A stretch of DNA of 64,000 nt from the NCBI GenBank assembly GCA_964538685.1, contig CAZIFD010000002.1, forward strand, positions 13,255 to 77,254, in the 5' to 3' direction. Below are positions 2,091-24,890 of this stretch, piece by piece. Positions within the stretch are counted from its first letter, which is position 1. The number at the start of each line of letters is the position of its first letter. This DNA is from an uncultured Bdellovibrionales bacterium (GTDB lineage: Bacteria; Patescibacteriota; Minisyncoccia; Moranbacterales; UBA2206). The notes under the pieces were generated by a model that made no database searches, had not been told where the DNA came from, and saw only the letters and a list, made by a program, of their open reading frames with translations. Position numbers and translations under genes: made by a program.

Positions 2091-2096
2091 AGTTGG

Positions 2097-3024: not shown

Positions 3025-3033
3025 TTTTATTTA

Positions 3034-4546: not shown

Positions 4547-4634
4547 AGCCCATGCACAGTTTGTGCTACATGAGCTTTTGTTGGTTATTTTGGTTGTTTT
4601 CAATAAGCTTTCACATCCCCACAATTGGGAAATA

Positions 4635-5192: not shown

Positions 5193-5241
5193 CCTCTCAG
5201 TGCGCGCACAAAAGTCCGCCCACTATGCGGACGGCTCCCAT

Positions 5242-7461: not shown

Positions 7462-8245
7462 AATTTTTTTGATCTATAAAACCCTGTATTCTATTTCTTG
7501 CAAGATCGACATATTTCTCATCTTTCTCGATACCAAGCCATTTGCGACCAAGTGCTTCCGCAACAACAGCAGTTGTTCCGCTTCCCATAAAAGGATCAAA
7601 AACAATGTCGCCTTTGTTGCTAGAGGCTAAAATCACTTGTTGTATAAGTTTAAGAGGTTTTTGTGTTGGATGTGCTTTTATTCCGTTTTCGTCTTTAAGT
7701 CTTTCATTGCCCTTACAAAGACCAAAGACCCAATCTGTATCTTTCATTTGTTTTCCTCCATTCAGTTTTTTCATAAATTCATAATTGAAAGTGTATTTTT
7801 TGCAATCTTTATTTTTTACAGACCAAATCAAAGTTTCGTGATTGTTTGTAAATCTGCGACCATTTAAATTTGGCAGGGCATCAGTTTTCACCCAAATAAC
7901 ATCATTTAAAAACCAAAGTCCGAGATTTTGCATTATTGTGCCAACACGAAAAATATTGTGATACATCCCAATAATCCAAAAAGTTCCTGTTGGCTTTAAA
8001 ATTCTTTGACATTCACTAATCCAAGCATGAGTGAAACTGTCATAATGTTCATAACTTTCAAAGCTATCCCATTCATTATTAACTGGGATAATCTCTGAGC
8101 CGTCGGCTCGTTTTAATCTCTTACCTTTTGGAAGTTGTAAATAATATGGAGGGTCTGCAAAAATTAAATCGACAGAATTATCTGGGATTTTCTTTATTTC
8201 CTCAATACAATCACCATGTATAATTTTGCCAAAATATTTTTCCAT
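7436..8245 (-). CDS. Beta-class amino-DNA methyltransferase (N6-adenine or N4-cytosine), DpnA-like in size
   Basis: Motif IV DPPY (LIFADPPYYL) precedes motif I (VFDPFMGSGTTAVVA), which is the beta-class order. 269 aa. Confidence 0.85.
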   Translation of the reverse strand: MEKYFGKIIHGDCIEEIKKIPDNSVDLIFADPPYYLQLPKGKRLKRADGSEIIPVNNEWDSFESYEHYDSFTHAWISECQRILKPTGTFWIIGMYHNIFRVGTIMQNLGLWFLNDVIWVKTDALPNLNGRRFTNNHETLIWSVKNKDCKKYTFNYEFMKKLNGGKQMKDTDWVFGLCKGNERLKDENGIKAHPTQKPLKLIQQVILASSNKGDIVFDPFMGSGTTAVVAEALGRKWLGIEKDEKYVDLARNRIQGFIDQKNYDKEAKKN

Positions 8246-8247
8246 AA

Positions 8248-9369
8248 CTAAAAATTGTAGATGACAAGGTGTTCAACATCTCTATCGTTTCGACCTTTTA
8301 CATTATAGAGATAGGTTTTATCAAATCTATCAATTTTTATTCCTTTTCTATTTTTATATAAGCTAGAAATAAAAGGCGTGTCTTTAATAATCAAAATGAA
8401 TTTCGCTTTTGTTTCATAAAGACATTTTGCCAGACGCTCCTGATCTTTTTTGTCAAAAGTTGCTTTTTCGTAATCACTGAAATCAGTATCGTATGGTGGA
8501 TCAAGAAAAATAAAATCTTTTTCAGTGAATTTATATTCATTAAAAATTTTCTCAAAATCTTGATTTTTAATGACCGTATTCTTAAAAAGTTTTTTTACTT
8601 CATCGCTAAAAATATGATCTACTTTGCTTCGAAAGTCTTTGTTGTTATAAGCAATACCACCATAAGGAATATTGAAATGACCACTACTGTTAAATCGAAA
8701 CATTGAAGCGTAGCAAAATTCACGAATGAAGTAGTAATTTGCAATTTTTTTAGGAAGACTCGTTGGAAACTTGCTTCCGTTGTAATTCATAACATCACGA
8801 AAGTGCATATAAAAACCGCTTCGGAAAGCTGTTTCAATATTTTTTTGCAAATCACCCTCCGGTAATTTACCTCTTTGTTTCTCAATCTCTCTCGTTCTAG
8901 AAATTTTTGAAATAAGGTTTGAGGAAATTTGCTTTAATAAATTTTGCTCGTCTAAACAGAAATCTTTATGAAAAAGCCCATTAAAACGCTCCTCTTCCTT
9001 TTTCAGAATTGTATTTACTTGTTTTGATAGTTCTATTTTTGAAATTTCATCGTGCCTATATAACTCATAAAGTTTTATAATTTTATTTTCAAATACACTG
9101 ATATATTTGGGAATTTTTTCCCAGTTATTGACATAATTGTATAACTCCCTTTTAAAAACCTCTCTTTGTTTACCTTCTTTTAGTAGAGTATAAAAATCTG
9201 TTAGTTCAGAACAAATATCATTGATGATTGATTTTTTGGGCTGTAATTGAAAGAAAATTGCACCACCACCAAAAAACGGCTCGATATAACGATCAAAAGC
9301 TGGAATTAAATCCTTTATGTAAGGATATTCTTTTGTCTTGCCACCAGGCCATTTTATAAGTGTTTGCAT
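8248..9369 (-). CDS. Dam-like (alpha-class) N6-adenine DNA methyltransferase
   Basis: N-terminus MQTLIKWPGGK...FFGGGAIFF (Dam-family motif I), then FLDPPYDTDF (motif IV) later. Confidence 0.85.
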   Translation of the reverse strand: MQTLIKWPGGKTKEYPYIKDLIPAFDRYIEPFFGGGAIFFQLQPKKSIINDICSELTDFYTLLKEGKQREVFKRELYNYVNNWEKIPKYISVFENKIIKLYELYRHDEISKIELSKQVNTILKKEEERFNGLFHKDFCLDEQNLLKQISSNLISKISRTREIEKQRGKLPEGDLQKNIETAFRSGFYMHFRDVMNYNGSKFPTSLPKKIANYYFIREFCYASMFRFNSSGHFNIPYGGIAYNNKDFRSKVDHIFSDEVKKLFKNTVIKNQDFEKIFNEYKFTEKDFIFLDPPYDTDFSDYEKATFDKKDQERLAKCLYETKAKFILIIKDTPFISSLYKNRKGIKIDRFDKTYLYNVKGRNDRDVEHLVIYNF

Positions 9370-9370
9370 A

Positions 9371-10198
9371 CTAGTCTAAATAAGTTTCTTTTATCGATTC
9401 GAGTGCTGATGTAATAAGGTGTGCGTTTTCTTTATATGTTTCCAAAACTATGTCGTAACCATCATCCGACTTACAGACAAAATTCCAAAAATCTTTTCCA
9501 ATCAAAAGTTCATCTTTTGAAAAAAATTGTAGAACCCGTCCTTGTTTCCATTCTTTATCTTCGCCAAACCTATTATAAGCAGTTGCAAAGTAAGCCTTTA
9601 TTTTTGCATCTTTTCCTAAAGCATTTGAGAGAATTGCATATTGCTCAAAAATAGCTTCCTTTTCAGATCGTGCTTTTTTGTTATCTAAATCTCCCCCTAT
9701 CTTCAACTCAATTAAATGATGAGTATTTGTTTCTTTATCAATAAGATAATAATCACTCACATGGACTTTTGATTTTAGTTTAGAATTTGGACTGGGTTTT
9801 ATTCTTCTTATTTCATCGTAATGAGATAATTGTGGGACTAGAGGATTTTTTGTGTTTTTATAACCTTCCAAAAGTTCGGCTATTTTTGATGTCTGTTCTG
9901 GATATAAATTTCCTTCAACACTTTTATTCACTTCATAAAAGAGTTTAGCAATATTGATAGCCATTCCCTCAAGCATATTTCCAAGAGAGCTATCTAAAGA
10001 ACGAACAAGGGCAGAATAATACTGAATATCTAAACCGAGGGCGGCGATAAAGACATTGTGAATTTTCATATTGATAACCCCATTTGGATTATCAACCTCT
10101 CCTTCATGTCTTGCCTTAAAACCAGTTGCATACGATTCCACTGCTGTCCTAACAATGGATTTTATAGCGTCTTTTTTGTTTAATGTGTTTTTATTCAT
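9371..10198 (-). CDS. Putative Type II restriction endonuclease (inferred from its position in the operon)
   Basis: 275-aa ORF sits immediately between the C-protein gene and two DNA MTases, with a 1-bp gap to the next gene. ...LIELKIGGDLDNKKARSEKE... may hold the PD-(D/E)xK-type catalytic core. The organisation mirrors DpnII-type cassettes (Dam-like MTase + second MTase + REase). Confidence 0.45.
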   Translation of the reverse strand: MNKNTLNKKDAIKSIVRTAVESYATGFKARHEGEVDNPNGVINMKIHNVFIAALGLDIQYYSALVRSLDSSLGNMLEGMAINIAKLFYEVNKSVEGNLYPEQTSKIAELLEGYKNTKNPLVPQLSHYDEIRRIKPSPNSKLKSKVHVSDYYLIDKETNTHHLIELKIGGDLDNKKARSEKEAIFEQYAILSNALGKDAKIKAYFATAYNRFGEDKEWKQGRVLQFFSKDELLIGKDFWNFVCKSDDGYDIVLETYKENAHLITSALESIKETYLD

Positions 10199-10203
10199 AA
10201 TAA

Positions 10204-10488
10204 TTATTTTAAAAGTTGATCTACGCTCACACCAAGCACTTTGGCGACCTTTTCCATTGTGCTAATTGTAAGATTTTGTTTGCCATTCTCAACATTACTA
10301 ATATACGCTCGGTCTAAACCTAACTCTCGGCAAATGTCGCCTTGCGACATGCCTTTTTCGAGTCGTATTTTTTTCATGTTTTCGCCAAATTTTTGTGCTG
10401 TGGTTTTTGCCATATTGTATGAAAACTTATCAACATGGTTATTATAGCACTCTCTTGTGTTTTGACTCAATGTTAAGTTATAATACAA
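10204..10488 (-). CDS. XRE-family HTH regulator (RM controller C-protein candidate); the true start is probably the internal Met at 10413 (MAKTTAQKF...)
   Basis: HTH: IRLEKGMSQGDICRELGLDRAYISNVENGKQNLTISTMEKVAKVLGVSVDQL. It is the first gene of the RM operon, consistent with C-protein architecture. Confidence 0.6.
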   Translation of the reverse strand: MYYNLTLSQNTRECYNNHVDKFSYNMAKTTAQKFGENMKKIRLEKGMSQGDICRELGLDRAYISNVENGKQNLTISTMEKVAKVLGVSVDQLLK

Positions 10489-10518
10489 GTGTGCAAAACA
10501 GTATTTTTATGAAGCGTC

Positions 10519-10612
10519 GGAACCAAAACCAAAAATTTTCCTTTCCATTTTTTGCCGGCTCCCCCACACCCCCCGCTGAAAGAGGAATTGTAAGGAAATT
10601 TTTGGTTTTGGG
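10519..10612. promoter_or_regulatory. Large inverted repeat (about 21-22 bp arms, ~50 nt spacer) between the C-protein gene and the serine recombinase gene
   Basis: 'ggaaccaaaaccaaaaattttcctt' (10519-10543) matches the reverse complement of 'aaggaaatttttggttttgg' (10592-10612) with one indel. A C-rich spacer and the GC palindrome 'ggcgcgaagcgcc' (~10748-10762) follow. Confidence 0.5.
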
Positions 10613-10819
10613 ATCGCGACCGAAGGGAGCGTGCGAGGCGCAAGTATCATTCGTCAAAATCCTGCGGATTTTACCCGAAATACATTCGAACTTTGTCCAA
10701 TACACACCGCCAAAATTGAAAATCGGAATCGGAAGCAAAAATGCGGTCGGCGCGAAGCGCCGTCTGTTCTGAATTCCCCCCAAAAAATCCTGAATCTGAA
10801 AGGGTTCGCCAATACAATT

Positions 10820-12394
10820 ATGAATAATCAAACCAAAAAATTTTTCATTTATACTCGCAAGTCTACGGACGACAAAGACAGACAAGTCCGCAGTATTTCT
10901 GACCAATTAGCTGAGCTGAAAAGTTTAGCGTTAAAAGAACAACTGGAAGTGGTAGATGTCTTTGTCGAAAAGCAGACCGCCAAAATACCAGGTCGGCCAG
11001 TGTTTAACGAAATGTTGGAGCGAATGGAGAAAGGCGAAGCGACTGGTATTTTGGCATGGCACCCCGACAGATTGGCGAGAAATAGTGTTGATGGTGGAAA
11101 AATTATCTACCTCGTTGATACTGGTGTAATTTCCGAAATGAAATTTCCAACTTTTTGGTTTGATCCGACACCGCAAGGCAAATTCATGCTTTCAATCGCT
11201 TTTTCGCAATCCAAGTATTATGTGGACAATTTAAGCGAGAATATAAAGCGTGGTAAGCGAAACAAAGTGAAAGACGGAATATGGCCTCAAATGTCTCCGC
11301 TTGGATATGTGAATAAAAATAGAAAGATTGTTCCCGATGAAAATATCGCACCCTTAATCAAGAAAACATTTGAGGCATATTCGTCTGGGTCTTTCACTTT
11401 GCGCGAACTTCGTGACAAATTTAACGGACTTGGATTGAAGCGAAAAAGCGGAAAGGAACTTGCGGTGTCGAATTATCAAAAACTTCTCAAAAATCCTATT
11501 TACACTGGTCTAATGCTCTACAACGGAGAGATTTTTGAGGGCAAGCACGAACCGATTATCACAAAGAAGCTTTTTGATTCTGTTCAAGAAGTGATGATGA
11601 GAAAATCTCAACCGAAAGGAAAAGGACTAAAGCCATTTTTGTATAGAGGATTTTTCCGTTGTGGGGAATGTGGCTGTTTCATTACCACCGAAACGCAGAA
11701 AGGTCATAACTATTTGCGATGTACCAAACGGAAAAATCCCTGCTCACAAAAATATGCTCGCGAGGAAATCATCACTTCAGAAATTCAAAAGGAAATCAAA
11801 AAAGTTTCTTTGCCAGACGATTGGGCTTCTTGGATGTTAGTGGAAAACGAAAAGGATAAATTGGTGGAAGCCCAATCGTCTACGCTTTTTGCAGACAACA
11901 CAAAAGCCGAAATTTCTCTTTTGGATTCCAAGATTGAGAAGCTGATGAACGCCTATTTAGAGAACATACTTTCGCTAGAAGAATATCGGGATGTTAAAAG
12001 TGCGTTAGTGAACCAAAAACAGCTTCTCAAAGAGAAATTATCGGCTTTTGAGCAAAAAGCGAATAATCGGTTCGAACTTGCCGAAAAGTTTTTAAAATAC
12101 AATGTGGAATTGGCAAACGAGGGAATAAATGAAGAGAAACTTCATTTATTCAAAAAAGTCGGTTCGAACTTTATTATTGAAGCTCGAACCGTACTTTTTG
12201 AGCCACGCGGAGCGTGGAAAAACCTTTTGAATTCGGGAATTCTTGGCGGGAATGCATTTGTGTCGGCGCTTCGCGCCGACCGCATTTTTGCTTCCGATTC
12301 CGATTTTCAATTTTGGCGGGCTACTCGAGTTAAGTACCCACGATATACAAGCATTGTAAGGCTTTTTGAGCGATCTGTAAATGGTTGGATTTAA
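10820..12394 (+). CDS. Large serine recombinase (integrase)
   Basis: Start reassigned to MNNQTKKFFIYTRKSTDDKD (resolvase catalytic-Ser motif YxRxST). Recombinase domain, Cys-rich zinc ribbon (CGECGCF...CTKRKNPC) and C-terminal coiled coil. The track ORF begins upstream at 10631. Confidence 0.85.
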   Translation: MNNQTKKFFIYTRKSTDDKDRQVRSISDQLAELKSLALKEQLEVVDVFVEKQTAKIPGRPVFNEMLERMEKGEATGILAWHPDRLARNSVDGGKIIYLVDTGVISEMKFPTFWFDPTPQGKFMLSIAFSQSKYYVDNLSENIKRGKRNKVKDGIWPQMSPLGYVNKNRKIVPDENIAPLIKKTFEAYSSGSFTLRELRDKFNGLGLKRKSGKELAVSNYQKLLKNPIYTGLMLYNGEIFEGKHEPIITKKLFDSVQEVMMRKSQPKGKGLKPFLYRGFFRCGECGCFITTETQKGHNYLRCTKRKNPCSQKYAREEIITSEIQKEIKKVSLPDDWASWMLVENEKDKLVEAQSSTLFADNTKAEISLLDSKIEKLMNAYLENILSLEEYRDVKSALVNQKQLLKEKLSAFEQKANNRFELAEKFLKYNVELANEGINEEKLHLFKKVGSNFIIEARTVLFEPRGAWKNLLNSGILGGNAFVSALRADRIFASDSDFQFWRATRVKYPRYTSIVRLFERSVNGWI

Positions 12395-12421
12395 GGTGTT
12401 TGGGTCGGGGTCTAAAACAAG

Positions 12422-12472
12422 AATGAGACAAATGAGACACTAAAAGGGTGTCTCGCACCTCTGTCTCATTTG
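12422..12472. repeat. att-like imperfect palindrome about 30 bp downstream of the recombinase stop
   Basis: Tandem 'aatgagaca' x2 (12422-12439), 'gtgtctc' (12448-12454), 'gtctcatttg' (12463-12472). 'caaatgagacac' also occurs at 3784-3795. Confidence 0.35.
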
Positions 12473-12510
12473 CTATACTTGATTATTTATGGTCTGATAT
12501 GAAGTTTTGA

Positions 12511-13218
12511 TTAGTAGGGTCTGAAATAAGATATTTCGCCAGTTTCAGAGTCTTGAACAACGTTCTCAATCCTACGCTTATAACCGAGAAAAACATCCTC
12601 ATCAAGTGAATGAGCGTAAAGAGATCTAAGTCCTCTCGCTCTATATTCAAGACTAAAAAAGAGGTAGGTCGTGAATGAACCAGTAAATCGATAGCAACGA
12701 ACACAAGTTTCCAGCTGATCCTCTAATTCAGATTCATATCCCTTCCAAGAGAATAAGCAAGGAAAACTCTCAATCCAATAACCAACGGTGAATTTAAGAA
12801 GTGAAATAATTTCTTGTTTAGCCGACAAATTTCCTTTTTGAGAAATTCTTACCAAAGCAATGCTGATGTCGTTTCTTATTTTTCTATCCTCAGAATCCTG
12901 CGGTGACAAAAAGGTATATCTTTTATCTTTGTATTTTTTGAGAATCAAATTTACTTCTTTTTTACTGCGATACCATTTTAATGCCTTCCATTGCTTTTTA
13001 GTTTTGCTGTGTTTGCAAGTCCATTTTTTCTGAAATTTTTTATCCAGCTTACTTACGATTTTATCCCAATCAATATCGCCAATTTCATTTTTTAGATTTT
13101 TCCAGATGAATCTATAAATACGGGGCGCATTTGTATATATCCAAGAACTACTTATTCTTGGGGGTTGCTTTTCTAAAAGAAGTTTATTGAGATCTTTGAT
13201 TACTTGATTGAAATCCAT
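12511..13218 (-). CDS. Hypothetical protein (235 aa, basic, W/K-rich)
   Basis: Clean ORF with no recognisable motif; possibly phage-derived. Confidence 0.35.
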   Translation of the reverse strand: MDFNQVIKDLNKLLLEKQPPRISSSWIYTNAPRIYRFIWKNLKNEIGDIDWDKIVSKLDKKFQKKWTCKHSKTKKQWKALKWYRSKKEVNLILKKYKDKRYTFLSPQDSEDRKIRNDISIALVRISQKGNLSAKQEIISLLKFTVGYWIESFPCLFSWKGYESELEDQLETCVRCYRFTGSFTTYLFFSLEYRARGLRSLYAHSLDEDVFLGYKRRIENVVQDSETGEISYFRPY

Positions 13219-13285
13219 TTTTCATTTTTGTTGTTTTGCTCTTTATATTACAAGCATATCAAAATAATCAACTTCTAACGATAAT

Positions 13286-13810
13286 TTAATTCAAGAATCC
13301 TCTTATAAAACCTTCGTAATCAGAATTGCTTGTAACCAATTTAGCGTCATCTAATAAAACTTCTTTAGAATTTTTATTATAAAAGAGTCGTAAGCCGTTT
13401 TCATCTTCCAGAATTATTATATCTCCAGATTCACCTTTCTTTTCTAATTTAGTTTTTCCAATGCTTTGAGGAGGTAAACTATTAAGAGCTACTATTTCAT
13501 CAAGTATTAAAACATCCTTATTATTTGTGGTCTCAATTGCGTAATATTGTCTTGCATCTCTAGGTTGATCATTCTCATTGTTTAATTTAACAAATCCTCT
13601 TAGCTCTCCCGTAAATGAACCATCGGAAGGATAGTATACTAAGGTGTTTGTAAGATTTATATGCGGTATAGCCTTGTAATTTATTAGAGAAAATTTCAAA
13701 TTTTGTTTTTCCTCAAATAAATTAAGCGTGGTGATTGCTAAGATAACAATCAGTATTATTTTCCAATGCTTTTTTAAGAATTGGACTACTCGTTCTTTTA
13801 TCTTTGCCAT
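13286..13810 (-). CDS. Hypothetical membrane-anchored protein (N-terminal TM helix, 174 aa)
   Basis: N-terminal hydrophobic segment WKIILIVILAITTLNLF followed by a soluble domain. Confidence 0.35.
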   Translation of the reverse strand: MAKIKERVVQFLKKHWKIILIVILAITTLNLFEEKQNLKFSLINYKAIPHINLTNTLVYYPSDGSFTGELRGFVKLNNENDQPRDARQYYAIETTNNKDVLILDEIVALNSLPPQSIGKTKLEKKGESGDIIILEDENGLRLFYNKNSKEVLLDDAKLVTSNSDYEGFIRGFLN

Positions 13811-13870
13811 AAATAAAACGACTTAATAATTAAGTCGCCGAGAAATTTCCTTGAGAGGACGACCCGGCGG

Positions 13871-13987
13871 ATACCACACTCAAGAAAACACTAGGTGTCT
13901 CTATTGCGTGCACCGAATCGCCCACTAAAGGGCACAATAGAGACAAGTTTTACTTGTTTTCCTAATATTTTATATGAGTGTGGTATC
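13871..13987. other. Nested long inverted repeats in non-coding DNA (possible structured RNA or recombination/partition site)
   Basis: Outer arms 'ataccacactca' (13871-13882) / 'tgagtgtggtat' (13976-13987). Inner arms 'ggtgtctctattg' (13894-13906) / 'caatagagaca' (13935-13945). Central 'gcgtgcac' palindrome. Confidence 0.4.
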
Positions 13988-14110
13988 GTCTTTAATATAG
14001 CATGGAATTGCCCAAAAAGAAAGCCTTTTTAATGAGAAAAACAGAGCCATTTTCAATCCGCTTTGACAAAAATTCAGTAAATTGATAAAATATTATTAAC
14101 AATTGAATAA

Positions 14111-14210
14111 GGAAGGATAGGCGTGATTCATCACGCTGTTCGAATGTCTTCCTTGTTCATATATAGACTTCCTAAACAGCGGATGAATTACAAATTCATT
14201 CGCTGTTTAA
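14111..14210. promoter_or_regulatory. Palindrome cluster immediately upstream of the ParB-MTase gene
   Basis: 'gcgtgattcatcacgc' perfect palindrome (14121-14136). 15-bp inverted repeat 'aaacagcggatgaat ... attcattcgctgttt' (14174-14208) followed by a T-rich tract. Confidence 0.45.
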
Positions 14211-14229
14211 TTTTTAATTAAAAAACGCT

Positions 14230-15585
14230 ATGCAAAAAGCAAGCAACAACGAAATCGTAGAAGAAAAACTTCACGTGCAGTATGTTCCGACTGCTGATCT
14301 CAAAACCGCGGACTATAATCCGCGTAAATGGAGCAAGGAAGCTGAAGCTCAGCTTCAGGAGAGTATAATTTCTTATGGACTGGTTGATCCGTTTATCGTG
14401 AATGCCGCTCCACAAAGAAAAAATGTTTTAATCGGAGGACATTTCCGATTGAGTATTGCTAAAAAATTGGGAATCAAAGAGGTGCCAATTGTTTACATTA
14501 ATATTCCAGACTTGGAAAAAGAAAAAGAATTAAACATTAGGTTAAACAAAAACACTGGTGAGTTCGATTGGGAAATGCTGGCCACCTTTGACGAGCAATT
14601 TCTTTCGAAAGTTGGCTTCTCCTCTGAAGAATTAGACGACATTTTCCACATAGAAGATAATCCGGAAGAATTTGATTTAGAAAAAGAACTGGCCAAACTC
14701 AAGATAGATAAAATTGAAATCAAAAAAGGAGATGTTTGGATGTTGGGCGATTCGAAATTATGTTGCGGCGATTCAACCATTGAGGCAGATATGCAAAAAC
14801 TCATGAGAAATGAAAAAGCCGATATGTGCTTTACTGATCCACCTTACATCCTGGATTATCTTCATGGAAAAAAGAAAAATGGAAAGCCAATCACAGGATT
14901 CGGGGCAAAACGTGATCGTAGATATTTGGAAACCGATTCATTACCGGATAATTTTACAGAGTTGTGGATGAAAAACATAAAGACAATATCTAAAGATGAT
15001 TTCCATATTATTGTTTACGAAAATTGGAAGAATCTCAGAATCATCTGGGGCGAAATGGAAAAATATTGGAAAGTAAAAAACATGATAGTTTGGCATCTGC
15101 CCAATCGAGTGCAGGGCTTTGCCGCTAAATATAAGTTCTTCAATAAGCATGATATTGCGATGGTAGGTACTTCTCATGAGAAAATAGAGCTTAACACTGA
15201 TCCGGAAGACAAGATTTTGGAAGAAGAATATCAAACAGCTCTCTACGCTATTTCAGGTAAACCACATTGGGAAGGATATGAGAAAGGCAAAAGGATTTGT
15301 CCAACTGATTTCATTGAATTCAACGCTGATGATGCAAAACACTCTGGTCAAGGAATAATCTTCGGAACAAAACCCCTGGAAATTCTCATTCCATACATCA
15401 AAGTACTTACCAAGCGTGGAGATTTGATTGTGGAGCCATTTGGTGGATCAGGCTCGACTCTCATGGCCGCAACCAAAATGAATAGAAGATGCTACCTTAT
15501 GGAGAAATCGCCAGTATATGCTGAAGTGATAAAAAATAGGTGGGAGAAATTAACAGGCAGGAAGGCTCAAAAGATAAATGGATGA
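14230..15585 (+). CDS. ParB-like nuclease domain fused to a beta-class DNA methyltransferase (phage/plasmid-type orphan MTase)
   Basis: N-terminal ParB/Srx motifs (DYNPRKWSKE ... IGGHFRLSIAKKLG ... VPIVYI). Then motif IV FTDPPYILDY and C-terminal motif I VEPFGGSGSTLMAA. Confidence 0.8.
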   Translation: MQKASNNEIVEEKLHVQYVPTADLKTADYNPRKWSKEAEAQLQESIISYGLVDPFIVNAAPQRKNVLIGGHFRLSIAKKLGIKEVPIVYINIPDLEKEKELNIRLNKNTGEFDWEMLATFDEQFLSKVGFSSEELDDIFHIEDNPEEFDLEKELAKLKIDKIEIKKGDVWMLGDSKLCCGDSTIEADMQKLMRNEKADMCFTDPPYILDYLHGKKKNGKPITGFGAKRDRRYLETDSLPDNFTELWMKNIKTISKDDFHIIVYENWKNLRIIWGEMEKYWKVKNMIVWHLPNRVQGFAAKYKFFNKHDIAMVGTSHEKIELNTDPEDKILEEEYQTALYAISGKPHWEGYEKGKRICPTDFIEFNADDAKHSGQGIIFGTKPLEILIPYIKVLTKRGDLIVEPFGGSGSTLMAATKMNRRCYLMEKSPVYAEVIKNRWEKLTGRKAQKING

Positions 15586-15979
15586 GAAAAATAACTTTGA
15601 TGAAACAATTGAGAAAAGACAGGAAGAATTAAAGCAAGCCATTATTGACCAGCTCAAAGAAACTCCAATTATAACCGTAGCCTGCAAAAGATCAGGCGTT
15701 GGTCGAGCAACTTATTACCGTTGGCGAAGCGAAGATCCACAATTCACCATGGCGATTAATTCCGCCCTTAAAGAAGGTATTGAACTTATAAACGACCTGA
15801 GTGAGTCTCAAATAATCCAGCTTATCAAGGAAAAGAAGCTTCCGGCTATTTCGCTGTGGTTAAAACATAATAATCCTCGTTATGGAGGAAGAAATATGCG
15901 CAGAGATTTGCCTGTTGCTCCTGAGCCTTTAACTGAAGATGAAGAAAAGCTATTCAAAAAAGCTTTGGGGCTAAAATAA
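15578..15979 (+). CDS. Phage terminase small-subunit-like HTH protein
   Basis: HTH ITVACKRSGVGRATYYRWRSEDPQF. Overlaps the MTase gene by 8 bp and is followed directly by the terminase large-subunit ATPase ORF. Confidence 0.5.
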   Translation: MDEKNNFDETIEKRQEELKQAIIDQLKETPIITVACKRSGVGRATYYRWRSEDPQFTMAINSALKEGIELINDLSESQIIQLIKEKKLPAISLWLKHNNPRYGGRNMRRDLPVAPEPLTEDEEKLFKKALGLK

Positions 15980-15988
15980 CAAATCCGT

Positions 15989-17086
15989 ATGTTAGAAGAA
16001 ATAACAGAAAAAGAAATAGCGCAGATAATGCAAAATAAAAGATTAAGGCAACGGCTTGCTTTTGAAGATCCAATGTGGTTTTCCCTTATTTATCTAAGGC
16101 ATCATTTCGAATTTCCCTTTGCTCCTTTTCACATGGAAATGTTTCAGATAATGAAAAATTCAAAATATGAATTGATAGTAACAATGGCCTTCCGAGGATC
16201 GGGAAAATCTACCCTCTTAAACATGGTAAACACCCTATGGTCAATCCTAGGAAAACCGCGGAAAAAATTCGTGGTGATTGTCAGCCAAACGCAAGAACAA
16301 GCTAAAAATCATTTCTCTAACATTAAAGAAGAACTAGTGACCAACGATCTTTTGCGAGAAGATTTTGGACCATACACTGAAGATGAAAGGGAGTGGAAGA
16401 AAACATCCATGGATCTTGTTTATCATGAGTCAAAAATACTGTCGGTTTCTTGGGAGACAGGCATCCGTGGAATCAAATATAAATCGATGAGACCTGATCT
16501 TATCATCTGCGATGACCTTGAAGACAGTTCGGCTAGAGTGGATAAAATAAAACGAGATGAGCTCTATTCTCGCTTTGTCAGTGAGGTTCTTCCCTTGGGA
16601 AGTAAAGATACACGAATTATTGTTTTGGGAAATTTGATTTGTAAAGAATCACTTCTCATGCGACTCAAAGATGATATTGAAAATAATCGGCAAGATGGAA
16701 TATTTCGAGCCTATCCCATAATTGATAATAGCCGCCGTATTTTATGGCCAGAAAGATATAAAAATATTGAGGAGATTAAGAAGATATGGAAAAAAGTGCC
16801 AACAAGTGTATGGGCAAGTGAATATGTTTTAAAATCGATTGGTTTTAATGAAAATGGAGAAATGCCAGTTATTATTCTCGATAATTTATTTGGAAATGAT
16901 GATCCAATTTATAAAAAAGACGTGAATTTATCACATCAGAAAGCTCTTATATCTCAAATGAGAAAGTTTAATATTTCACCACCGAGCAAAAAAGAAATAA
17001 CATTTGTTTACTCAAGTGAAAATGATCCAGAATATTGGCACAACTTTGGAAATATATTTTTGGATAAGCCGAGATCAAAAAAATGA
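15989..17086 (+). CDS. Phage terminase large subunit, ATPase domain only (nuclease domain apparently missing; truncated or degenerate)
   Basis: Walker A FRGSGKST, Walker B LIICDDLED, coupling motif VLGN. At 365 aa it is shorter than complete TerL proteins. Confidence 0.6.
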   Translation: MLEEITEKEIAQIMQNKRLRQRLAFEDPMWFSLIYLRHHFEFPFAPFHMEMFQIMKNSKYELIVTMAFRGSGKSTLLNMVNTLWSILGKPRKKFVVIVSQTQEQAKNHFSNIKEELVTNDLLREDFGPYTEDEREWKKTSMDLVYHESKILSVSWETGIRGIKYKSMRPDLIICDDLEDSSARVDKIKRDELYSRFVSEVLPLGSKDTRIIVLGNLICKESLLMRLKDDIENNRQDGIFRAYPIIDNSRRILWPERYKNIEEIKKIWKKVPTSVWASEYVLKSIGFNENGEMPVIILDNLFGNDDPIYKKDVNLSHQKALISQMRKFNISPPSKKEITFVYSSENDPEYWHNFGNIFLDKPRSKK

Positions 17087-17087
17087 G

Positions 17088-17636
17088 TTATTTATAAAAC
17101 AACTCGTGATTTCTGAGTTCATTCTTTATTTCCAAATAATCTGGCATGAGTTTTTCAACCAGCGACCAGAACCTTCTGGAATGGTTAAATTCTTTTAAAT
17201 GGCATAACTCATGGACAATAATGTAGTCCTGTTGCTTTTTTGGCAGAAAAATAATTTTGTAGTTGAAATTGAGGTTCCTATTTTTAGAACAGCTACCCCA
17301 ACGAGTCTTGTGGTTTTTGATATTTAAAGCATTATATGAAAAAGCAAATTTTTTACTAAATACTTTGATGCGAGCAAGGACTAATTGAACTGCTTCGTCT
17401 TTATGCTTTAAATAGTCATCCTGAGAAAAAGTTCGGATAGCTTTGCTATCAATACTCTTAAAGAAATTTATTTTATCAGTCAGCCATTGTTTTTTGTCTG
17501 CAATGAATTTTTCAATTATTGTTTGATTTATTCCGAAAGGAGTAGTAATAACAACACTGCCATCACAATAAACAGCCAGTCGCATTCTTTTGGCTCTTTT
17601 GCTTTTCTTGATAATGTATTTCGGCTTTCTAATCAT
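17088..17636 (-). CDS. DUF45/YgjP-like (M48/WLM-type) metal-dependent hydrolase, the usual hsdR-downstream partner
   Basis: HELCHLKEFNHSRRFW (HExxH...H). Sits 5 bp downstream of hsdR, a common arrangement in Type I RM loci. Confidence 0.7.
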   Translation of the reverse strand: MIRKPKYIIKKSKRAKRMRLAVYCDGSVVITTPFGINQTIIEKFIADKKQWLTDKINFFKSIDSKAIRTFSQDDYLKHKDEAVQLVLARIKVFSKKFAFSYNALNIKNHKTRWGSCSKNRNLNFNYKIIFLPKKQQDYIIVHELCHLKEFNHSRRFWSLVEKLMPDYLEIKNELRNHELFYK

Positions 17637-17641
17637 ATTAC

Positions 17642-20557
17642 CTAAAATTTCTTTATGATAATATCCACAAGCCTATTCATGAATTTAGGAAAATCTTTCA
17701 CAGTAAACTTTTCCCTATAATCTCTCAGGATAAGCTCCTGTAGTGTTTGTTTTATGTCTTTGATAAACGTATCTCGCTTAGAAGATTCTTGCCATCCAGC
17801 ATCCGTATCATCTTCAATCCTTGCTCTCAGCTCTTTTACAAAATCTTTGATATCATTTTCTTGGGCATCGGAAATAAATTCTTGAGAAATAACATAAAGA
17901 GCATATTCTCTTAAATCCATCCCCAGATTTTTAGCTTCTTCTCCCTTTGTTTTAATATCTTTCATCAATTCTTCATAGCGTCGGATACGCTCTGCCAAAT
18001 CAATCTGATTCTGTTCAAATTCACGGCGAATTGCTCCAAGCCTTTCACTAAATTTCTGATACGCCGGATCCTCATCAAGATTGATAGAAATTTCTTGTTT
18101 CAGCATCTTTTCAAGATTGAGGGCTTTTTCCTCATCACCCATATCCTTTAGGCGTTCCAGCGTATAAAGCTCATTGACTTTAAGCTCACGAAAGTTTTTT
18201 GTGATACCCTCATAGTCTATAATATTACTTTCTCGAATAAGATTCTTAACTTTTTCTCCATACTCTTCCAACAAATAACGATCATCTTCACTACGAAAAT
18301 CTTTCAAAAATGCCAAATAGAAACTTGTTACCCATTCAAAAGGTCGAATATATTGTTTCAGGAACGGATCGGGAGAAAGAAATTCAAACAAGCTTTTTAG
18401 TTTGGCATATTTTTCGGCAAAATATTTTTGCTTGTCTTGATTGTCGATGAAAATCTTCAAACATCTGCGAAGATTATCCATTGAAGGATCTTCGATGTTA
18501 ACTCCTGTAAAAATTTTCATAACGTCGTTCATAACATCAGAAAATTTCGCCTTCACTCGTTCGATATCGATCATAGCCGAATCAATTACATCCTCGTCAA
18601 AGTCCAAAGCATTATAGAGATTTCTGGTAATTCCGTAATAATCAATGATTTTCCCAGCTTCCTTGTTTTTATAAACCCGATTCGTTCTGGCAATCGCCTG
18701 CAGGAGATTATGATCACGTAGGGGTTTATCAAGATACATCACTTGTTCAATTGGCGCATCAAAACCAGTTAACAACATATCGCACACAAGCAAAAACTTT
18801 AGAGATGAATTCGGATCTTTGAACTTTTCAATAATCTGCTCCCGCTCTTTTTTGCTGGTATTATAAATTTTCAAATCGTCAGCATCACTATTTGGATCCC
18901 CAGGAGAATACACAACCGCTGACCATTCTGCCGGAACGAGCTTGTCAAACAATTTTCTATAATCTGCCACCGCTTCGCGATCATAGGCAACTACCTGTGC
19001 CTTGAAACCATTTGGCTCAACATACAATTTATAATGCTCGACAATATCTCTTGCAACTGCCTCCATTCTTTTTGGAAGCTTTACTAATGCCGCCTTCTTG
19101 CCATATTTCTTTACCAATTCCGTCTTTTGTTTGTCAGACAAGTCACTCGCAATCTCATCGAATTGCTTATCTAGCTTCTCTTCATCAATGGAAAATTTAG
19201 AAAGACGTGCCTCGTAGGTAACTGGGATTGTCGCTCCATCATCAATGGCCTCTTGAATTGAGTAATAATCCAGATAGCGTTTTCCTTCACCTTCATAATT
19301 TCTGAAAGTGTTGGTATGAGTTTTATCTACTGGTGTGCCGGTAAACCCAAAGAAGAATGCTTTTTTGAAAGCATTTCTCATGTTTATTCCTGAAACTCCC
19401 TCATCTCCACGATGAGCCTCATCGGAAAGAATTATTACATTCTCATCCAAATTTTCGACTTCGTTGCCAAGCTCCGAAAACTTTTGAATAGTCGTGATAA
19501 ATATTCCGCGTTCCGGTGATTGTATTTTTTCTTCCAAGTCTTTTCGCGAGGTAACACGGACAATATTTTTTCCTCCGGCATTGGTAAAAGTATCAAATAT
19601 TTGTTGATCCAAGTCTACTCGATCCACCAAGATGAAGATTTTTGGATTTTGCAATAATTTATTAAAACGCAATTTCCAAGCCGTAAAAAACATTGTGAGA
19701 GTTTTTCCTGAACCTTGTGTGTGCCAAATAAGCCCTTGGTGTTTTTCCTTGTTCACTACACGATTAACAATCTTATTTGTGGCTCTTAGTTGTTGATAGC
19801 GAGCAATCTTTTTAACCAGTTTCTCTTTTTCTTTTTCAAACAAAATGAAATTTCCGACAATATCCAATAGATTAGGCTTGTTAAGTAGAACAAAGAGAGT
19901 CATTTCCAATTCCCCTCCCAGTTCTTTTTCCAAGTCCTCGTCTCGCCACTGTAAAAAGTATTGTTTTGGCGCATAAGTTGCTCCGTAAACAGTTTTTAGT
20001 CCGTCACTGGCAATATTAAAGCAGTTTGGGAAAAATAATTTGCGTGCCACTTTTTCATATCTTTTAATCTGATCAATTCCATTCTCAAAGGTCACACTTT
20101 CCGAAGCAGTTGGGCTCTTAGCTTCAATATCAACTAGCGGCAGACCATTTACAAAAATCATGACATCCGGTCGGATGTTTTCGGTGTCACCTTCGAAATA
20201 GAATTGATTAGTGGCAACAAAGTGATTATTTTCAGGATTTTCAAAATCAAGTAATTTATAATCCTGCATTTTTCCAGTCTTTGAACTTTTCAAGTTGATT
20301 CCTTCGCGCAAAGCCTTTAGAAATCCTTCATTAGTGTCAATTTTGTTTACTTCTCTAACTACACTGACAATCTCATCATCATTTGCGTCAGGATTATTTT
20401 TTTTGATTGCATTCTCAAGTAAGGACTTTATTATATATTCACTTTCAAGACTCCTAAGTTTTGAAAATTCTTCGGGTTTAATATATTCATAATCAAGTTT
20501 GTCTTTTATGAATTTGATTATGTAATTTTCAATTGTTACTTGTTCGTTAAATTTCAT
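17642..20557 (-). CDS. hsdR: Type I restriction enzyme R subunit
   Basis: N-terminal nuclease region. SF2 helicase motifs TQGSGKTLTM (motif I) and ILSDEAHRG (DEAH). 971 aa. Confidence 0.9.
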   Translation of the reverse strand: MKFNEQVTIENYIIKFIKDKLDYEYIKPEEFSKLRSLESEYIIKSLLENAIKKNNPDANDDEIVSVVREVNKIDTNEGFLKALREGINLKSSKTGKMQDYKLLDFENPENNHFVATNQFYFEGDTENIRPDVMIFVNGLPLVDIEAKSPTASESVTFENGIDQIKRYEKVARKLFFPNCFNIASDGLKTVYGATYAPKQYFLQWRDEDLEKELGGELEMTLFVLLNKPNLLDIVGNFILFEKEKEKLVKKIARYQQLRATNKIVNRVVNKEKHQGLIWHTQGSGKTLTMFFTAWKLRFNKLLQNPKIFILVDRVDLDQQIFDTFTNAGGKNIVRVTSRKDLEEKIQSPERGIFITTIQKFSELGNEVENLDENVIILSDEAHRGDEGVSGINMRNAFKKAFFFGFTGTPVDKTHTNTFRNYEGEGKRYLDYYSIQEAIDDGATIPVTYEARLSKFSIDEEKLDKQFDEIASDLSDKQKTELVKKYGKKAALVKLPKRMEAVARDIVEHYKLYVEPNGFKAQVVAYDREAVADYRKLFDKLVPAEWSAVVYSPGDPNSDADDLKIYNTSKKEREQIIEKFKDPNSSLKFLLVCDMLLTGFDAPIEQVMYLDKPLRDHNLLQAIARTNRVYKNKEAGKIIDYYGITRNLYNALDFDEDVIDSAMIDIERVKAKFSDVMNDVMKIFTGVNIEDPSMDNLRRCLKIFIDNQDKQKYFAEKYAKLKSLFEFLSPDPFLKQYIRPFEWVTSFYLAFLKDFRSEDDRYLLEEYGEKVKNLIRESNIIDYEGITKNFRELKVNELYTLERLKDMGDEEKALNLEKMLKQEISINLDEDPAYQKFSERLGAIRREFEQNQIDLAERIRRYEELMKDIKTKGEEAKNLGMDLREYALYVISQEFISDAQENDIKDFVKELRARIEDDTDAGWQESSKRDTFIKDIKQTLQELILRDYREKFTVKDFPKFMNRLVDIIIKKF

Positions 20558-20964
20558 AATTTTTTGCTTAAGAGAAAGTCGACTATTTCTAAGCCTTCAT
20601 TGTATTTATCGCAAATTTCTTCTTCCAATTTACTATAATCATCTTTTTCAATAATTGTATGCACTATATTATTTCTAAAATCAATATAACTATTAAGACT
20701 TTCGAATTCTTTTTTATTCAAATAACTAGAAACACGCGATTCACGTGCGGCTTGACCAAAATTTCTTGGTGCTTTTAATCCAACTATTTTGTTTTTCTTA
20801 TTGCATTCACAACTAAATTCCCGTATTAATCCCTCGATGACACTGGCCTGCAAAAGAAAAGCCTGTATAAATCTAGGTTCTTGATCTTCATCTGGAGCAA
20901 ATAAGAAGTCTCCTTGAGCTCTGTTTATTAGCAACTTTGCATTTTCAACAATTTCTTTTTTCAT
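20554..20964 (-). CDS. Hypothetical small protein with an HEPN-like Rx4H motif (DFRNNIVHT)
   Basis: 136 aa, typical HEPN size. Located between hsdS and hsdR. Overlaps hsdR by 4 bp. Confidence 0.35.
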   Translation of the reverse strand: MKKEIVENAKLLINRAQGDFLFAPDEDQEPRFIQAFLLQASVIEGLIREFSCECNKKNKIVGLKAPRNFGQAARESRVSSYLNKKEFESLNSYIDFRNNIVHTIIEKDDYSKLEEEICDKYNEGLEIVDFLLSKKL

Positions 20965-20966
20965 AT

Positions 20967-21260
20967 CTACTTTTTCAGCAGTCTGTTTCTAGGTGGTTTT
21001 TCTTGTTTAATAATTTTCTTTTCCAATATCTCAGCCTTTTCGACAGTTCCCGTTTCAATAACTCTAAAATTTGTACCACCTTTAAACTGACCTTTATGCT
21101 CGTAAACTCTATCTCCAAGACGACCCGCCTTTGCTTTTCCAACATAAAGCAACTCGTCTTTAGCATTTACTATTTTATACACACCAGCACTTTTACCAGA
21201 CAATTTTTCTACGTTTGTCTTGGTGATTTGTCTCTTTGGACTGAAGCTTTGTTTCTTCAT
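20967..21260 (-). CDS. Small standalone GIY-YIG nuclease-domain protein
   Basis: GVYKIVN...LLYVGKA...RLGDRVYEH...EKAEILEKKII...PPRN matches the GIY-YIG core (GIY, YIG, Arg, His/Glu, C-terminal E..LI..P.N). 97 aa. Confidence 0.7.
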   Translation of the reverse strand: MKKQSFSPKRQITKTNVEKLSGKSAGVYKIVNAKDELLYVGKAKAGRLGDRVYEHKGQFKGGTNFRVIETGTVEKAEILEKKIIKQEKPPRNRLLKK

Positions 21261-21347
21261 AGATTTTTTATTAATTTATTATTTACCCTAACTTCCCAAC
21301 TCAAAGATCTTGCGTCAGACCTTTTTTTGAGTTGAGCAGTTTAGATT

Positions 21348-22094
21348 TTAACTTTTAAATTTTTTTCTTATCATATTAAAAATTTTATCTGAAAATTTTT
21401 CAAAAGAATTTCTTGCCTCTTTATAGTCAGCCTCTTTCAGCTTAATCGGATCATTAATATTATATCTTTTTTTAATCTCTATATTCCTGATTTGCTTTAA
21501 AAACTTATCATCAATTATCGCTGCATTATGAATTATTACGTTTCGCAAAGCTTGATACTCAATAAGTTTATTCTTCAATTCATCTTCGACAATTAAATCA
21601 AGATGCAAATATTCTTTCAAGAAATTAATAGTGCTTTGTAAGTCTTGGAAATTATATTTTTCTCTTAAAGATGATCCGATTATCAAGCTGCCTATTGTTG
21701 GAGATGAATATTTTAAAATATTTGGATCAAAGCTAATTTGCTTTTTTTCCGGCCAATTAATTATATCAGGATAATTATCTATGATATTTTTAATCAAGTC
21801 GTTCATAAATGACTCGAATGTAGCAATTACTAAAACAACTGACTGGTTATAAATAATCTTGTATTTTTCAATCAATATGGGATGGTTTTTGATATTTCTT
21901 ATCTGATCAATAACGATATCTAATTTTTGCTTGTAGGGTAAAAAAGCAGACATCCTTTCGTTTTCTCTTTTTAGGTTTCCAAGCATTTCCAAAAGAATAT
22001 TTCCCGCGTCTGAGCCAATTTCGCTTAATTGATCAATTTGTTTAAGATTATTCTTAAAAGTTTCTAAAACATTATTGATTTTTTCCATATACAC
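21348..22094 (-). CDS. Hypothetical protein with an HEPN-like Rx4H motif (ALRNVIIHN)
   Basis: 248 aa. Overlaps the hsdS 3' end by 23 bp. No other recognisable domain. Confidence 0.35.
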   Translation of the reverse strand: MYMEKINNVLETFKNNLKQIDQLSEIGSDAGNILLEMLGNLKRENERMSAFLPYKQKLDIVIDQIRNIKNHPILIEKYKIIYNQSVVLVIATFESFMNDLIKNIIDNYPDIINWPEKKQISFDPNILKYSSPTIGSLIIGSSLREKYNFQDLQSTINFLKEYLHLDLIVEDELKNKLIEYQALRNVIIHNAAIIDDKFLKQIRNIEIKKRYNINDPIKLKEADYKEARNSFEKFSDKIFNMIRKKFKS

Positions 22095-23271
22095 TAATCC
22101 TCACTTTCCCACTCAAAAGATCCTGCGCCAGACCCTTTTTAAGTTGGGTAAGTTTAGATTTTAACTTTTTATTAATTGAAATTTTTTCATCAATGGCTGA
22201 AAGAATTTCTGCAATTTTATCTTGTTCATCTTTTTCCGGTTTCAAAATCAATAGGGGTCTAAGTTTTTCTAGGTTTATGTTTTTTTGTGCAGACTGGGTT
22301 GAAATCTTGTTTAAATAATCTTTCCTTGTCCTCAAAAAATACTCCAAAAAAACACTATTCATTTGATAATTGGAAGTTATTCCTACTAAGCTGTCAGGAA
22401 AACATGAATCAAATTCAAGTATTCCAGTATCTCCAATATTAGCGGCTATAGTTAAAACTATTGTTCCTTTCTTGAACATTCTGCTAACCTTTAATCCATT
22501 TTCATTTAGTGTTTGGCTATACTTTGTAATTTTACCATTTGAACCTATAACATCACCTGTTTGAATAAATGGAATATCACCGCCATAAAATCTTGCGTCA
22601 TTCCTTGGTCTATGAGAAAACTTACCCCTTTCAACCTGAGCAATTTCCTCTAATTTAACAACGTCCCATTCCTCCGGAATTTCACCAAGCTTAGTTTTTT
22701 TGAATTTTTTATGACCAATTCCGCGCGTAAAAAGATCCTGCATCAAACCTTTTTTCAGTTTCCCCGCTTTATCAATCACTTCTTGCGTTTTCAAAATATC
22801 CTCATCTACAGATCCAAGAATTTCAGCGATTTTTTGTTGCTCAGTTTTTGATTCTGGCATCCAAATATCAAGGTTTTGATACTGGGAAATATAATATCGT
22901 TTATGGTTTGCAATAGGAAATTTTATAAGATTTATTACTTCATAAATAAATTTCAGATCAGAACTTTGATCTTTGCATTTCAAAATTTTGATTGCCGACG
23001 ACTTTACCTTGAATGGAAAATCTACGAACTTGCTATCGGTAGTAAAATCGTCAAATATAATGACTGGAAAATCTTTATATATTCCAAAATCTTCATCGGT
23101 ATATCCCAAAATAAAAGATTTATTAGCAGTCAAGACAGGTGTTTTATTATTGGAATCATAATTTGTGCTTTTTACAATATACTTATCCGGCCTTTCATAA
23201 TCCAAAACGTCACTTATTTTTCTAAGTGTCCATCCTTGGGGAGTATTTTTTTGTGCAGTATTATTTTTCAT
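22072..23271 (-). CDS. hsdS: Type I restriction-modification specificity subunit
   Basis: Two target-recognition domains separated by conserved repeats (LKKGLMQDLFTRG ... LKKGLAQDLLSGKVRI). 399 aa. Confidence 0.8.
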   Translation of the reverse strand: MKNNTAQKNTPQGWTLRKISDVLDYERPDKYIVKSTNYDSNNKTPVLTANKSFILGYTDEDFGIYKDFPVIIFDDFTTDSKFVDFPFKVKSSAIKILKCKDQSSDLKFIYEVINLIKFPIANHKRYYISQYQNLDIWMPESKTEQQKIAEILGSVDEDILKTQEVIDKAGKLKKGLMQDLFTRGIGHKKFKKTKLGEIPEEWDVVKLEEIAQVERGKFSHRPRNDARFYGGDIPFIQTGDVIGSNGKITKYSQTLNENGLKVSRMFKKGTIVLTIAANIGDTGILEFDSCFPDSLVGITSNYQMNSVFLEYFLRTRKDYLNKISTQSAQKNINLEKLRPLLILKPEKDEQDKIAEILSAIDEKISINKKLKSKLTQLKKGLAQDLLSGKVRISVYGKNQ

Positions 23272-23275
23272 AATG

Positions 23276-24864: not shown

Positions 24865-24890
24865 ATTTTTAGCAAATTAGTTTTTTAGAG

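Follow-up and report, generated by a model that had tools for sequence, protein, structure and literature searches.

Staphylococcus aureus pathogenicity islands (SaPIs) carry their own small terminase subunit (TerS). Motors of the phi29 type serve phages with protein-primed unit-length genomes and adjoin capsid genes, and the P2/P4 hotspots are fixed slots in mobile elements in which defence systems are swapped between close strains. The ParB-Tls loci that phages and prophages contain have genes for a ParB-domain protein and for an N6A/N4C DNA methyltransferase immediately before the terminase genes, and the methyltransferase is predicted to modify DNA during packaging (Iyer, Zhang and Aravind, BioEssays 2016, PMC4738411). 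Capsid-forming phage-inducible chromosomal islands (cf-PICIs) are integrative satellites with their own terS and terL genes, and their large terminase subunits (TerL) form clades that are old and separate from phage TerL (bioRxiv 10.1101/2022.09.08.507074); they are the only satellites known to carry both genes. PICMIs, according to the paper on them, do not encode TerS. The phage-inducible chromosomal island-like element (PLE) of Vibrio cholerae is reported to have a large serine recombinase and to manipulate the TerL of its helper (PMC6002521, PMC11417361). Here we analysed 64,000 nucleotides (the window) of contig CAZIFD010000002.1 (positions 13,255 to 77,254), from an assembly labelled as an uncultured Bdellovibrionales bacterium and placed by GTDB in the Patescibacteriota (GCA_964538685.1). 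Three adjacent genes in the window (the trio) encode a ParB–methyltransferase fusion, a helix-turn-helix (HTH) protein and a TerL-family ATPase that has no nuclease domain. We interpret the locus, with about even confidence, as the intact backbone of a satellite-like integrative island of ~18 kb (~12316 to ~30100) that lies beside a tRNA-Ser gene and has its own terminase-derived module.

The trio shares its gene neighbourhood with the ParB-Tls loci, as a ParB-domain protein and a DNA methyltransferase are encoded right upstream of TerL, and the module appears to descend from a pac-type phage terminase locus with this ParB–TerL arrangement. It differs from those loci in being followed by cargo and a serine recombinase, not by portal and head genes, and in that the TerL of this clade is without a nuclease. 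Like cf-PICIs, the island has terminase genes of its own rather than just redirecting those of a helper. Unlike cf-PICIs, which also encode capsid, protease, portal, head-connector and HNH proteins, it has genes for none of these, and its integrase is a large serine recombinase. An integrase together with an absence of virion structural genes is what is expected of a satellite. PLEs and classical PICIs or SaPIs are likewise small integrative islands without structural genes, and depend on helper virions; they differ from the island in having replication and regulatory modules and no TerL, and their dependence on a helper has been demonstrated, whereas here we infer it from the genes. The phi29-type ATPases (gp16; phi28 gp11, PDB 7jq6) have an ASCE/TerL-like fold and are nuclease-free, as is the TerL of the window (fold match to 7jq6, E = 1e-3), but the sequence affinity of the latter is to TerL of the T7/Mu type. 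With the P2/P4 hotspots the island shares a slot whose contents are swapped; it differs in host phylum, backbone genes and integrase type.

The third gene of the trio encodes a TerL-family protein of 365 amino acids. It matches the TerL family phrog_38 (E = 1.7e-42) over residues 7–281 only, which correspond to the ATPase part (profile positions 254–518 of 760), and the NCBIfam model of T7-type TerL (4.4e-18). Among PDB structures, an AlphaFold model built from 68 homologues (pLDDT 88, pTM 0.89) most resembles TerL ATPases (8dgc_E at 3.6e-9, followed by the T4 gp17 ATPase, HK97 and P74-26), and the PDB profile matches also fall on TerL ATPase domains. The N-terminal ASCE ATPase is present with its Walker A, Walker B and coupling motifs; the family alignment (68 sequences) shows no variation in Walker A (AFRGSGKS), in Walker B (RPDLIICDDLED) or in the GN motif. 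The C-terminal RNase-H-like nuclease with its three acidic catalytic residues, which is expected of a TerL, is absent, and no portal or head morphogenesis genes adjoin the gene. Residues 282–365 form a tail that is mostly coil in the model and contains a short conserved motif (Q317...P332). A preliminary description of this DNA, made without database searches, had recognized the three open reading frames (ORFs) and their positions, and had noted a 365-aa TerL with Walker A and B motifs and no nuclease. Pfam and PHROG searches uphold its ParB/methyltransferase and TerL calls, and hidden Markov model (HMM), alignment and six-frame searches confirm the missing nuclease; its TerS-like call is weak.

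The short form of TerL is characteristic of a large family. A search of 5.8 billion proteins returned 1005 homologues at E ≤ 1e-3, and the best 120 are mostly 340–420 aa in length and cover 95–99% of the query, down to ~45% identity. The family consists of proteins of 330–470 aa, almost all from Patescibacteria (named homologues belong to Parcubacteria, Nomurabacteria, Brennerbacteria and other Patescibacteria), and its longer members add only low-complexity tails. More distant relatives (~40% identity, 475–560 aa) match phrog_38 over its full length. The nuclease motifs GIDLAIS, EDVGYQ and KHDDLVDAF occur in relatives of at least 475 aa, and all three are missing from the window protein and its clade. 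An HMM of the nuclease domain, built from the long relatives, matched every protein of ≥475 aa and 0 of ~46 complete short ones; it did not match the 365-aa protein at E ≤ 10. With filters off, it found no remnant in any of the six reading frames of the window (best match, E = 3.4) or of 39 nuclease-less loci; a nuclease domain displaced or frameshifted close to TerL was rejected on this ground.

In a neighbour-joining tree of the ATPase domain, 38 of 38 nuclease-less sequences fall into one clade, so that one loss of the nuclease suffices and several independent losses can be discarded. The domain was probably lost once and long ago, in an old TerL subclade. Relatives terminate at the same position with TAA, and the TGA stop of the window TerL is therefore real; an alternative genetic code that reads through it is ruled out on this ground and also because the long genes are all open in translation table 11 and read-through would overlap the well-supported DUF45 gene. 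Ratios of non-synonymous to synonymous substitution rates (dN/dS), computed against three related strains, are 0.02–0.06 for the methyltransferase, 0.03–0.05 for the HTH protein, 0.03–0.08 for the TerL core and 0.22–0.30 for the TerL tail. The ATPase has stayed catalytically complete and is under strong purifying selection, and the trio is a set of working genes, not debris.

The first gene of the trio encodes a protein with matches to ParB_N (2.2e-9) and N6_N4_Mtase (1e-20) in Pfam and to the phage ParB–methyltransferase family phrog_498 (3.4e-80). The 133-aa HTH protein between it and TerL occupies the position of TerS, directly upstream of terL, and has weak TerS-like matches (phrog_4044, 9.5e-8; PF13022, 2.1e-6; Sf6_terminase, 3.6e-4; PHROG TerS families overall, 1e-7 to 2e-4). 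Its predicted model is all-helical (pLDDT 88.7), and the best Foldseek matches in the PDB, 2AO9 and Sf6 gp1, are weak (E 0.17–0.6, probability 0.8–0.9, TM-score 0.36–0.42). The trio is probably the co-transcribed core of the island.

We evaluated the distribution of the module in one genome per GTDB species (185,579 representatives). At least 575 of them encode a relative; the named records come almost entirely from Patescibacteria, of several classes, and a small number bear different labels that were assigned automatically. Architecture was counted in 105 non-redundant loci from genomes and IMG/VR. The ParB–methyltransferase lies collinear and upstream of TerL in 100 of the 105 (order ParB–methyltransferase, HTH, TerL) and is split into two genes in some lineages. 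A large serine recombinase is encoded downstream of TerL in 55, on the TerL strand in all but one of these (54/55). It begins no more than 131 nucleotides (nt) after TerL, or overlaps the TerL end, in 20 loci; in the others, 1–11 genes, mostly on the opposite strand, intervene. Homologues at 74%, 59%, 53% and 48% identity have an identical trio order, differing flanks and no structural genes. The intervening or neighbouring cargo is of a kind often carried by mobile islands and includes restriction–modification (RM) systems of types I, IIG and III, Shedu, OLD-family and UvrD-like proteins, SMODS, reverse transcriptases and LexA- or XRE-type regulators, and in one group of loci a copper ATPase and CsoR. 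Portal, capsid and tail genes were found in none of the related loci examined (more than 100, including IMG/VR contigs of 33–55 kb). IMG/VR holds about 23 family members, and five contexts that were checked contain no structural genes.

Some individual loci (designated by L numbers) depart from this plan or add to it. Downstream of TerL, L029, L041, L057 and L065 have genes for copper resistance in place of defence genes (CopA-type P-type ATPase, CsoR-like repressor and DUF305-like protein), as judged by eye; a portal or capsid identity for the copper ATPase and its neighbours after some short TerLs was considered and discarded, as they read as CopA-, CsoR- and DUF305-like cargo. Five Peribacteria-labelled loci (L050, L052, L059, L078 and L094; TerL at ~7.9–11.1 kb) encode two full-length TerL paralogues in tandem, and in this group ParB and the methyltransferase are separate genes, which is unusual for a phage packaging locus. 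Two copies of the trio occur in a single assembly in two cases (L056 with L059, and L041 with L088).

The window fits the family plan: the trio is followed by 11,605 nt of cargo, a serine recombinase and a tRNA-Ser gene. The cargo consists of DUF45/YgjP, HsdR, small unknown genes, HsdS, further unknown genes, an SMODS+AGS_C protein and HsdM. The recombinase, the presumed integrase (SerRecS), is 44–67% identical to recombinases downstream of TerL elsewhere, and the orientation of the tRNA towards the recombinase is repeated in many related loci. In a control set of 80 metagenome loci chosen by the recombinase alone, with the upstream flank limited to 10 kb, 37 have a downstream tRNA gene (30 Ser, 6 Asp and 1 Gln) whose 3′ end always points towards the recombinase, as is usual where an island has integrated at a tRNA gene. 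Searches that included Pfam and PHROGs detected no portal, capsid or tail genes between 12 and 53 kb of the window. The preliminary description had seen in the trio a phage late-operon signature; the gene order is indeed that of phage ParB–TerL loci, but no portal or head genes follow, and the remaining structural genes for which it proposed to search were found neither in this part of the window nor in related loci.

Comparison of close strains defines the left end of the island and reveals exchange of its contents. The junction at 12316, marked by a motif that is unique in the window, is base-exact in five related strains, and the DNA to the left of it is unrelated among them: a recombinase unit in the window and L170, a thymidylate kinase gene (with the Tmk terminator) in L171 and L172, DnaG in L001, and another serine recombinase. 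The conserved block to the right (12316–17082 in the window) comprises two minus-strand genes, for proteins of 235 and 174 aa, followed by the trio. Immediately after the TerL stop (17082–17088), close strains have nothing (the window), an OLD-family nuclease, a UvrD-like helicase with a 207-aa protein, or Shedu (SduA_C); the inserts lie at 6558–8264 in L170, 11101–13369 in L171 and 11132–12547 in L001, and DUF45–HsdR follows in every close strain. This site is a hotspot at which defence genes are swapped.

We propose that the recombinase would excise and integrate the island, that the HTH protein would bind a recognition site on island DNA, and that the TerL ATPase would drive this DNA into the procapsids of a helper phage, in the direction from trio through cargo to integrase; packaging in this direction would explain the fixed polarity of the module. 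The ParB–methyltransferase might mark or protect island DNA, as was predicted for enzymes of this kind in the ParB–TerL loci of phages (PMC4738411). As the TerL of this clade has no nuclease, the nuclease-less subclade would need a cut supplied in trans, by the helper terminase or by the ParB-type domain, or its ATPase may have been retained to compete in packaging and thereby hinder the helper motor. From gene content we infer that the island is mobile in vivo, depends on a helper and is packaged, as well as what its methyltransferase does. The structural and evolutionary statements about the island are very probably correct; its satellite-type function is a tentative proposal, with the chances somewhat against it. 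The preliminary description had offered a phage satellite as its second choice, which comes close to the explanation favoured here, with the function remaining conditional. A bolder version, which we think unlikely, is that no phage satellite of Patescibacteria had been recognized before these islands, which would make up a new class without capsids and with a complete terminase of its own, in which the nuclease-less TerL docks onto the helper portal as an ATPase-only subunit and either packages island DNA cut by another nuclease or blocks packaging by the helper.

Several observations weigh against the interpretation as a satellite-like island. A nuclease-less terminase is unable on its own to begin or end headful packaging, and the TerS label of the 133-aa protein is weak. 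An excision product, an att site, a helper phage and packaged DNA were not observed. The right flank, DUF45–HsdR, is syntenic in close strains, so that the island as a whole need not have moved recently. Searches of Pfam, PHROGs and PADLOC revealed no replication module among the island genes, several of which are unannotated. No repeat joins the island ends, which is expected for serine integrases and uninformative; a search for att repeats between the ends, or for a partial tRNA copy, gave nothing above chance. Among recombinase-selected loci the TerL module was seen in 5 of 18 with a flank of ≥9.9 kb and in 9 of 27 with a flank of 3–10 kb, although the 10-kb limit would miss the window’s own trio, which is separated from the recombinase by 11.6 kb of cargo. 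Many of these loci show only minus-strand cargo up to the flank edge, one of them with the DUF45–HsdR–HsdS–HsdM cargo of the window. Some islands have the ParB–methyltransferase and HTH genes without TerL, and two have an inverted module. The TerL module is thus a frequent, not an obligatory, partner of this integrase family. Six loci with the same integrase family (L219, L227, L177, L205, L213 and L230) variously lack TerL, have an unrelated 441-aa protein in its place or have the module inverted.

The preliminary description favoured a decaying prophage, whose late operon was cut by insertion of a type I RM operon that left a 3′-truncated TerL. Such an origin would account for the order of the trio, which is a known phage arrangement, and for a TerL that ends one base from a convergent gene. 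(The ~550 bp that the preliminary description placed between TerL and the DUF45–hsdR block are the DUF45/YgjP gene itself.) We consider this explanation extremely improbable, because the 365-aa ORF aligns over its whole length with the members of a large family that are just as short, the outcome that the preliminary description had itself named as decisive against truncation. Moreover, the TerL end is identical, with TAA or TGA, in strains with differing downstream genes and in unrelated contexts; no nuclease remnant exists in the window or in 39 nuclease-less loci, and the loss lies deep in the tree; dN/dS is 0.02–0.08 across the trio; and more than 100 related loci are free of structural genes. 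Relaxed selection, pseudogenes and lineage-specific breakpoints, the marks of a degraded prophage, are not seen, and the ORFs are intact in all relatives. The RM operon occupies the standard slot of the family and is therefore cargo, not an insertion that destroyed a prophage. Strong purifying selection is compatible with a domesticated host module, in which a translocase and a methyltransferase serve a cellular task (DNA uptake or handling), are inherited mostly vertically and are linked to islands incidentally. The spread over hundreds of species and several classes of Patescibacteria, with short and long TerL forms that track broad taxonomic groups, is in keeping with this idea. It is nevertheless very unlikely given the patchy occurrence among the 185,579 species representatives (lower bound, 575), flanks that differ even among close strains, the two assemblies with two copies each and the consistent link to integrase and tRNA genes.

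The main rival explanation, although rather unlikely, makes the trio an anti-phage system in its own right, derived from a terminase and housed in defence islands, with the serine recombinase as no more than the integrase of the surrounding island. In an RM-like version, the methyltransferase would mark self DNA, the HTH protein would give specificity and TerL would act as a translocase-nuclease; in the nuclease-less clade, TerL could be a decoy ATPase that poisons the packaging motor of a phage. The trio is always found among defence genes, a methyltransferase is present in every case, and the genes are under strong purifying selection even though structural genes are lacking. In some lineages, TerL paralogues in tandem and a ParB gene separate from that of the methyltransferase look more like parts of a cellular system than of a phage motor, and the module is often missing within 10 kb in recombinase-selected islands. 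Against a defence role, no PADLOC model fits the TerL ATPase, and only generic methyltransferase models match the trio. An RM-like system that had lost its nuclease, as the TerL of this clade has, would not be expected to hold the ATPase at a dN/dS of 0.03–0.08, an objection that the decoy version escapes. The polarity of the module relative to the recombinase is fixed, whereas the cargo lies mostly on the other strand, and the 20 loci in which the recombinase follows or overlaps TerL closely are operon-like.

Table 1 Features of the island and its surroundings in the window
Feature	Position	Strand	Details
SerRecL unit, 1.6 kb	10707-12319	+	524-aa large serine recombinase (10820-12394) between 105-nt inverted repeats
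Island left end	12316-12510		Sharp junction and conserved non-coding DNA downstream of the 235-aa gene; motif GCGGGCWWCTCGAGTTAAGTACCC
235-aa protein	12511-13218	-	Present in L001, L025, L170, L171, L172; dN/dS 0.04-0.07; divergent from trio
174-aa protein	13286-13810	-	Conserved in L169, L171, L172; dN/dS 0.08
Structured divergent intergenic region	13811-14060		Folding z-score -7.05; compensatory changes among window, L171 and L001
Predicted sigma-70-type promoter of trio	14063-14091	+	TTGACA, 17 nt, TAAAAT, TG; 11/12 matches
Leader with two strong hairpins, 135 nt	14095-14229	+	z-score -8.1
ParB_N/beta-class N6A-N4C DNA methyltransferase fusion, 451 aa	14230-15585	+	DPPY motif; C-terminal FGGSGST
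All-helical HTH protein, weakly TerS-like, 133 aa	15578-15979	+	Start overlaps methyltransferase stop by 8 nt
TerL-family packaging ATPase without nuclease domain, 365 aa	15989-17086	+	Core residues 1-281; tail 282-365
Cargo region, 11 called ORFs, 10 on minus strand	17088-28414	-	Slot shared with cargo of other loci
DUF45/YgjP gene	17088-17636	- (convergent)	Stop one base from TerL TGA (17084-17086)
Large serine recombinase SerRecS, 442 aa, presumed integrase	28691-30019	+	Pfam Resolvase, Recombinase and Zn_ribbon_recom; phrog_95 integrase 1.1e-63
tRNA-Ser(GGA), presumed integration target	30131-30218	-	3′ end faces recombinase, 112 nt away

The DNA upstream of the trio may have regulatory functions. 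The predicted promoter is the best in the region and is conserved in L170, L171 and L001; it is a consensus match only. The conserved and strongly structured intergenic region (Table 1), which has no Rfam match, is predicted to fold into a long imperfect hairpin and could be a leader, a non-coding RNA or a protein-binding palindrome. In the leader of the trio, the second hairpin (14173–14209) resembles an intrinsic terminator, ends 21 nt before the methyltransferase start codon and may act as an attenuator of the ParB–methyltransferase operon; both hairpins are kept in three related strains, with one compensatory change. The idea that the module in general has a leader of this terminator-like kind was rejected, as a comparable hairpin is present in 11 of 82 loci, close relatives only. 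The two conserved genes that diverge from the trio have no family assignment: for the 235-aa protein, no Pfam, PHROG or PDB match was found and PADLOC gave one weak match (PDC-M62B, 1e-4), and for the 174-aa protein, Pfam, PHROG, PADLOC and PDB searches returned no family.

To the left of the island, the window has ~11.7 kb more than L001 between the DnaG flank (2–589) and 12316. This stretch (~590–12315) contains nucleotide-metabolism-like genes; it encodes a TylF-like methyltransferase, DUF3800, an HD protein, a short thymidylate-synthase-like ORF and a guanylate-kinase-like ORF, as well as an AAA_13 ATPase with a methyltransferase and a type II RM system with an XRE controller, and it ends in the 524-aa serine recombinase. 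It looks like a second island, which would make tandem islands at one junction. The recombinase at its end (SerRecL) is 35% identical to the island integrase. The inverted repeats around it have a 57-nt perfect core and a GC hairpin in each arm, and the right arm ends at the left junction of the island. The unit is absent from the left junction of L171, L172 and L001, and similar units occur in L012 (3438–5459) and L010 (229–1727). It could be an invertible segment or an insertion-sequence-like unit driven by the serine recombinase. A Logan contig that ends inside the right arm was not used as evidence of inversion, as a repeat-induced assembly break is the simpler explanation.

Other features of the window were recorded in passing. 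Between the XRE gene and the SerRecL unit, a perfect 16-nt inverted repeat encloses a GC-rich loop of 57 nt (10523–10611) and has no Rfam match. Within the cargo, the type I RM operon is broken up at 20554–26727 by several extra genes, which include a weak GIY-YIG-like ORF, three to four unknown ORFs and the gene for the SMODS+AGS_C protein (24891–26195); this protein resembles a CBASS-type cyclase, and no obvious effector was found. Farther downstream, from the glycosyltransferase genes to ruvA (37598–45638), lie five consecutive minus-strand ORFs (244, 563, 279, 786 and 777 aa) with no Pfam or PHROG match.

The full-text literature that we searched, coverage of which was incomplete, contained no description of the island family or of the nuclease-less TerL family, and an earlier description may exist; the large family of capsid-less terminase islands of Patescibacteria is apparently undescribed. 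Patescibacteria have tiny genomes and few recognized prophages, and little is known about their mobile elements, satellites and gene transfer. An island family that occurs in at least 575 genomes of species rank, with a variable defence arsenal and with a terminase but no capsid, would give a concrete, testable route for horizontal transfer and for conflict among phage, host and satellite in these bacteria. Such loci are probably miscounted as prophages, as the ~23 family members in IMG/VR suggest. The long conservation of a TerL ATPase that lacks its nuclease offers a natural experiment in how the two terminase activities can be uncoupled. If an ATPase-only TerL does dock onto the portal of a helper, the host would have retained, within a defence island, a terminase that had become a weapon against phages.

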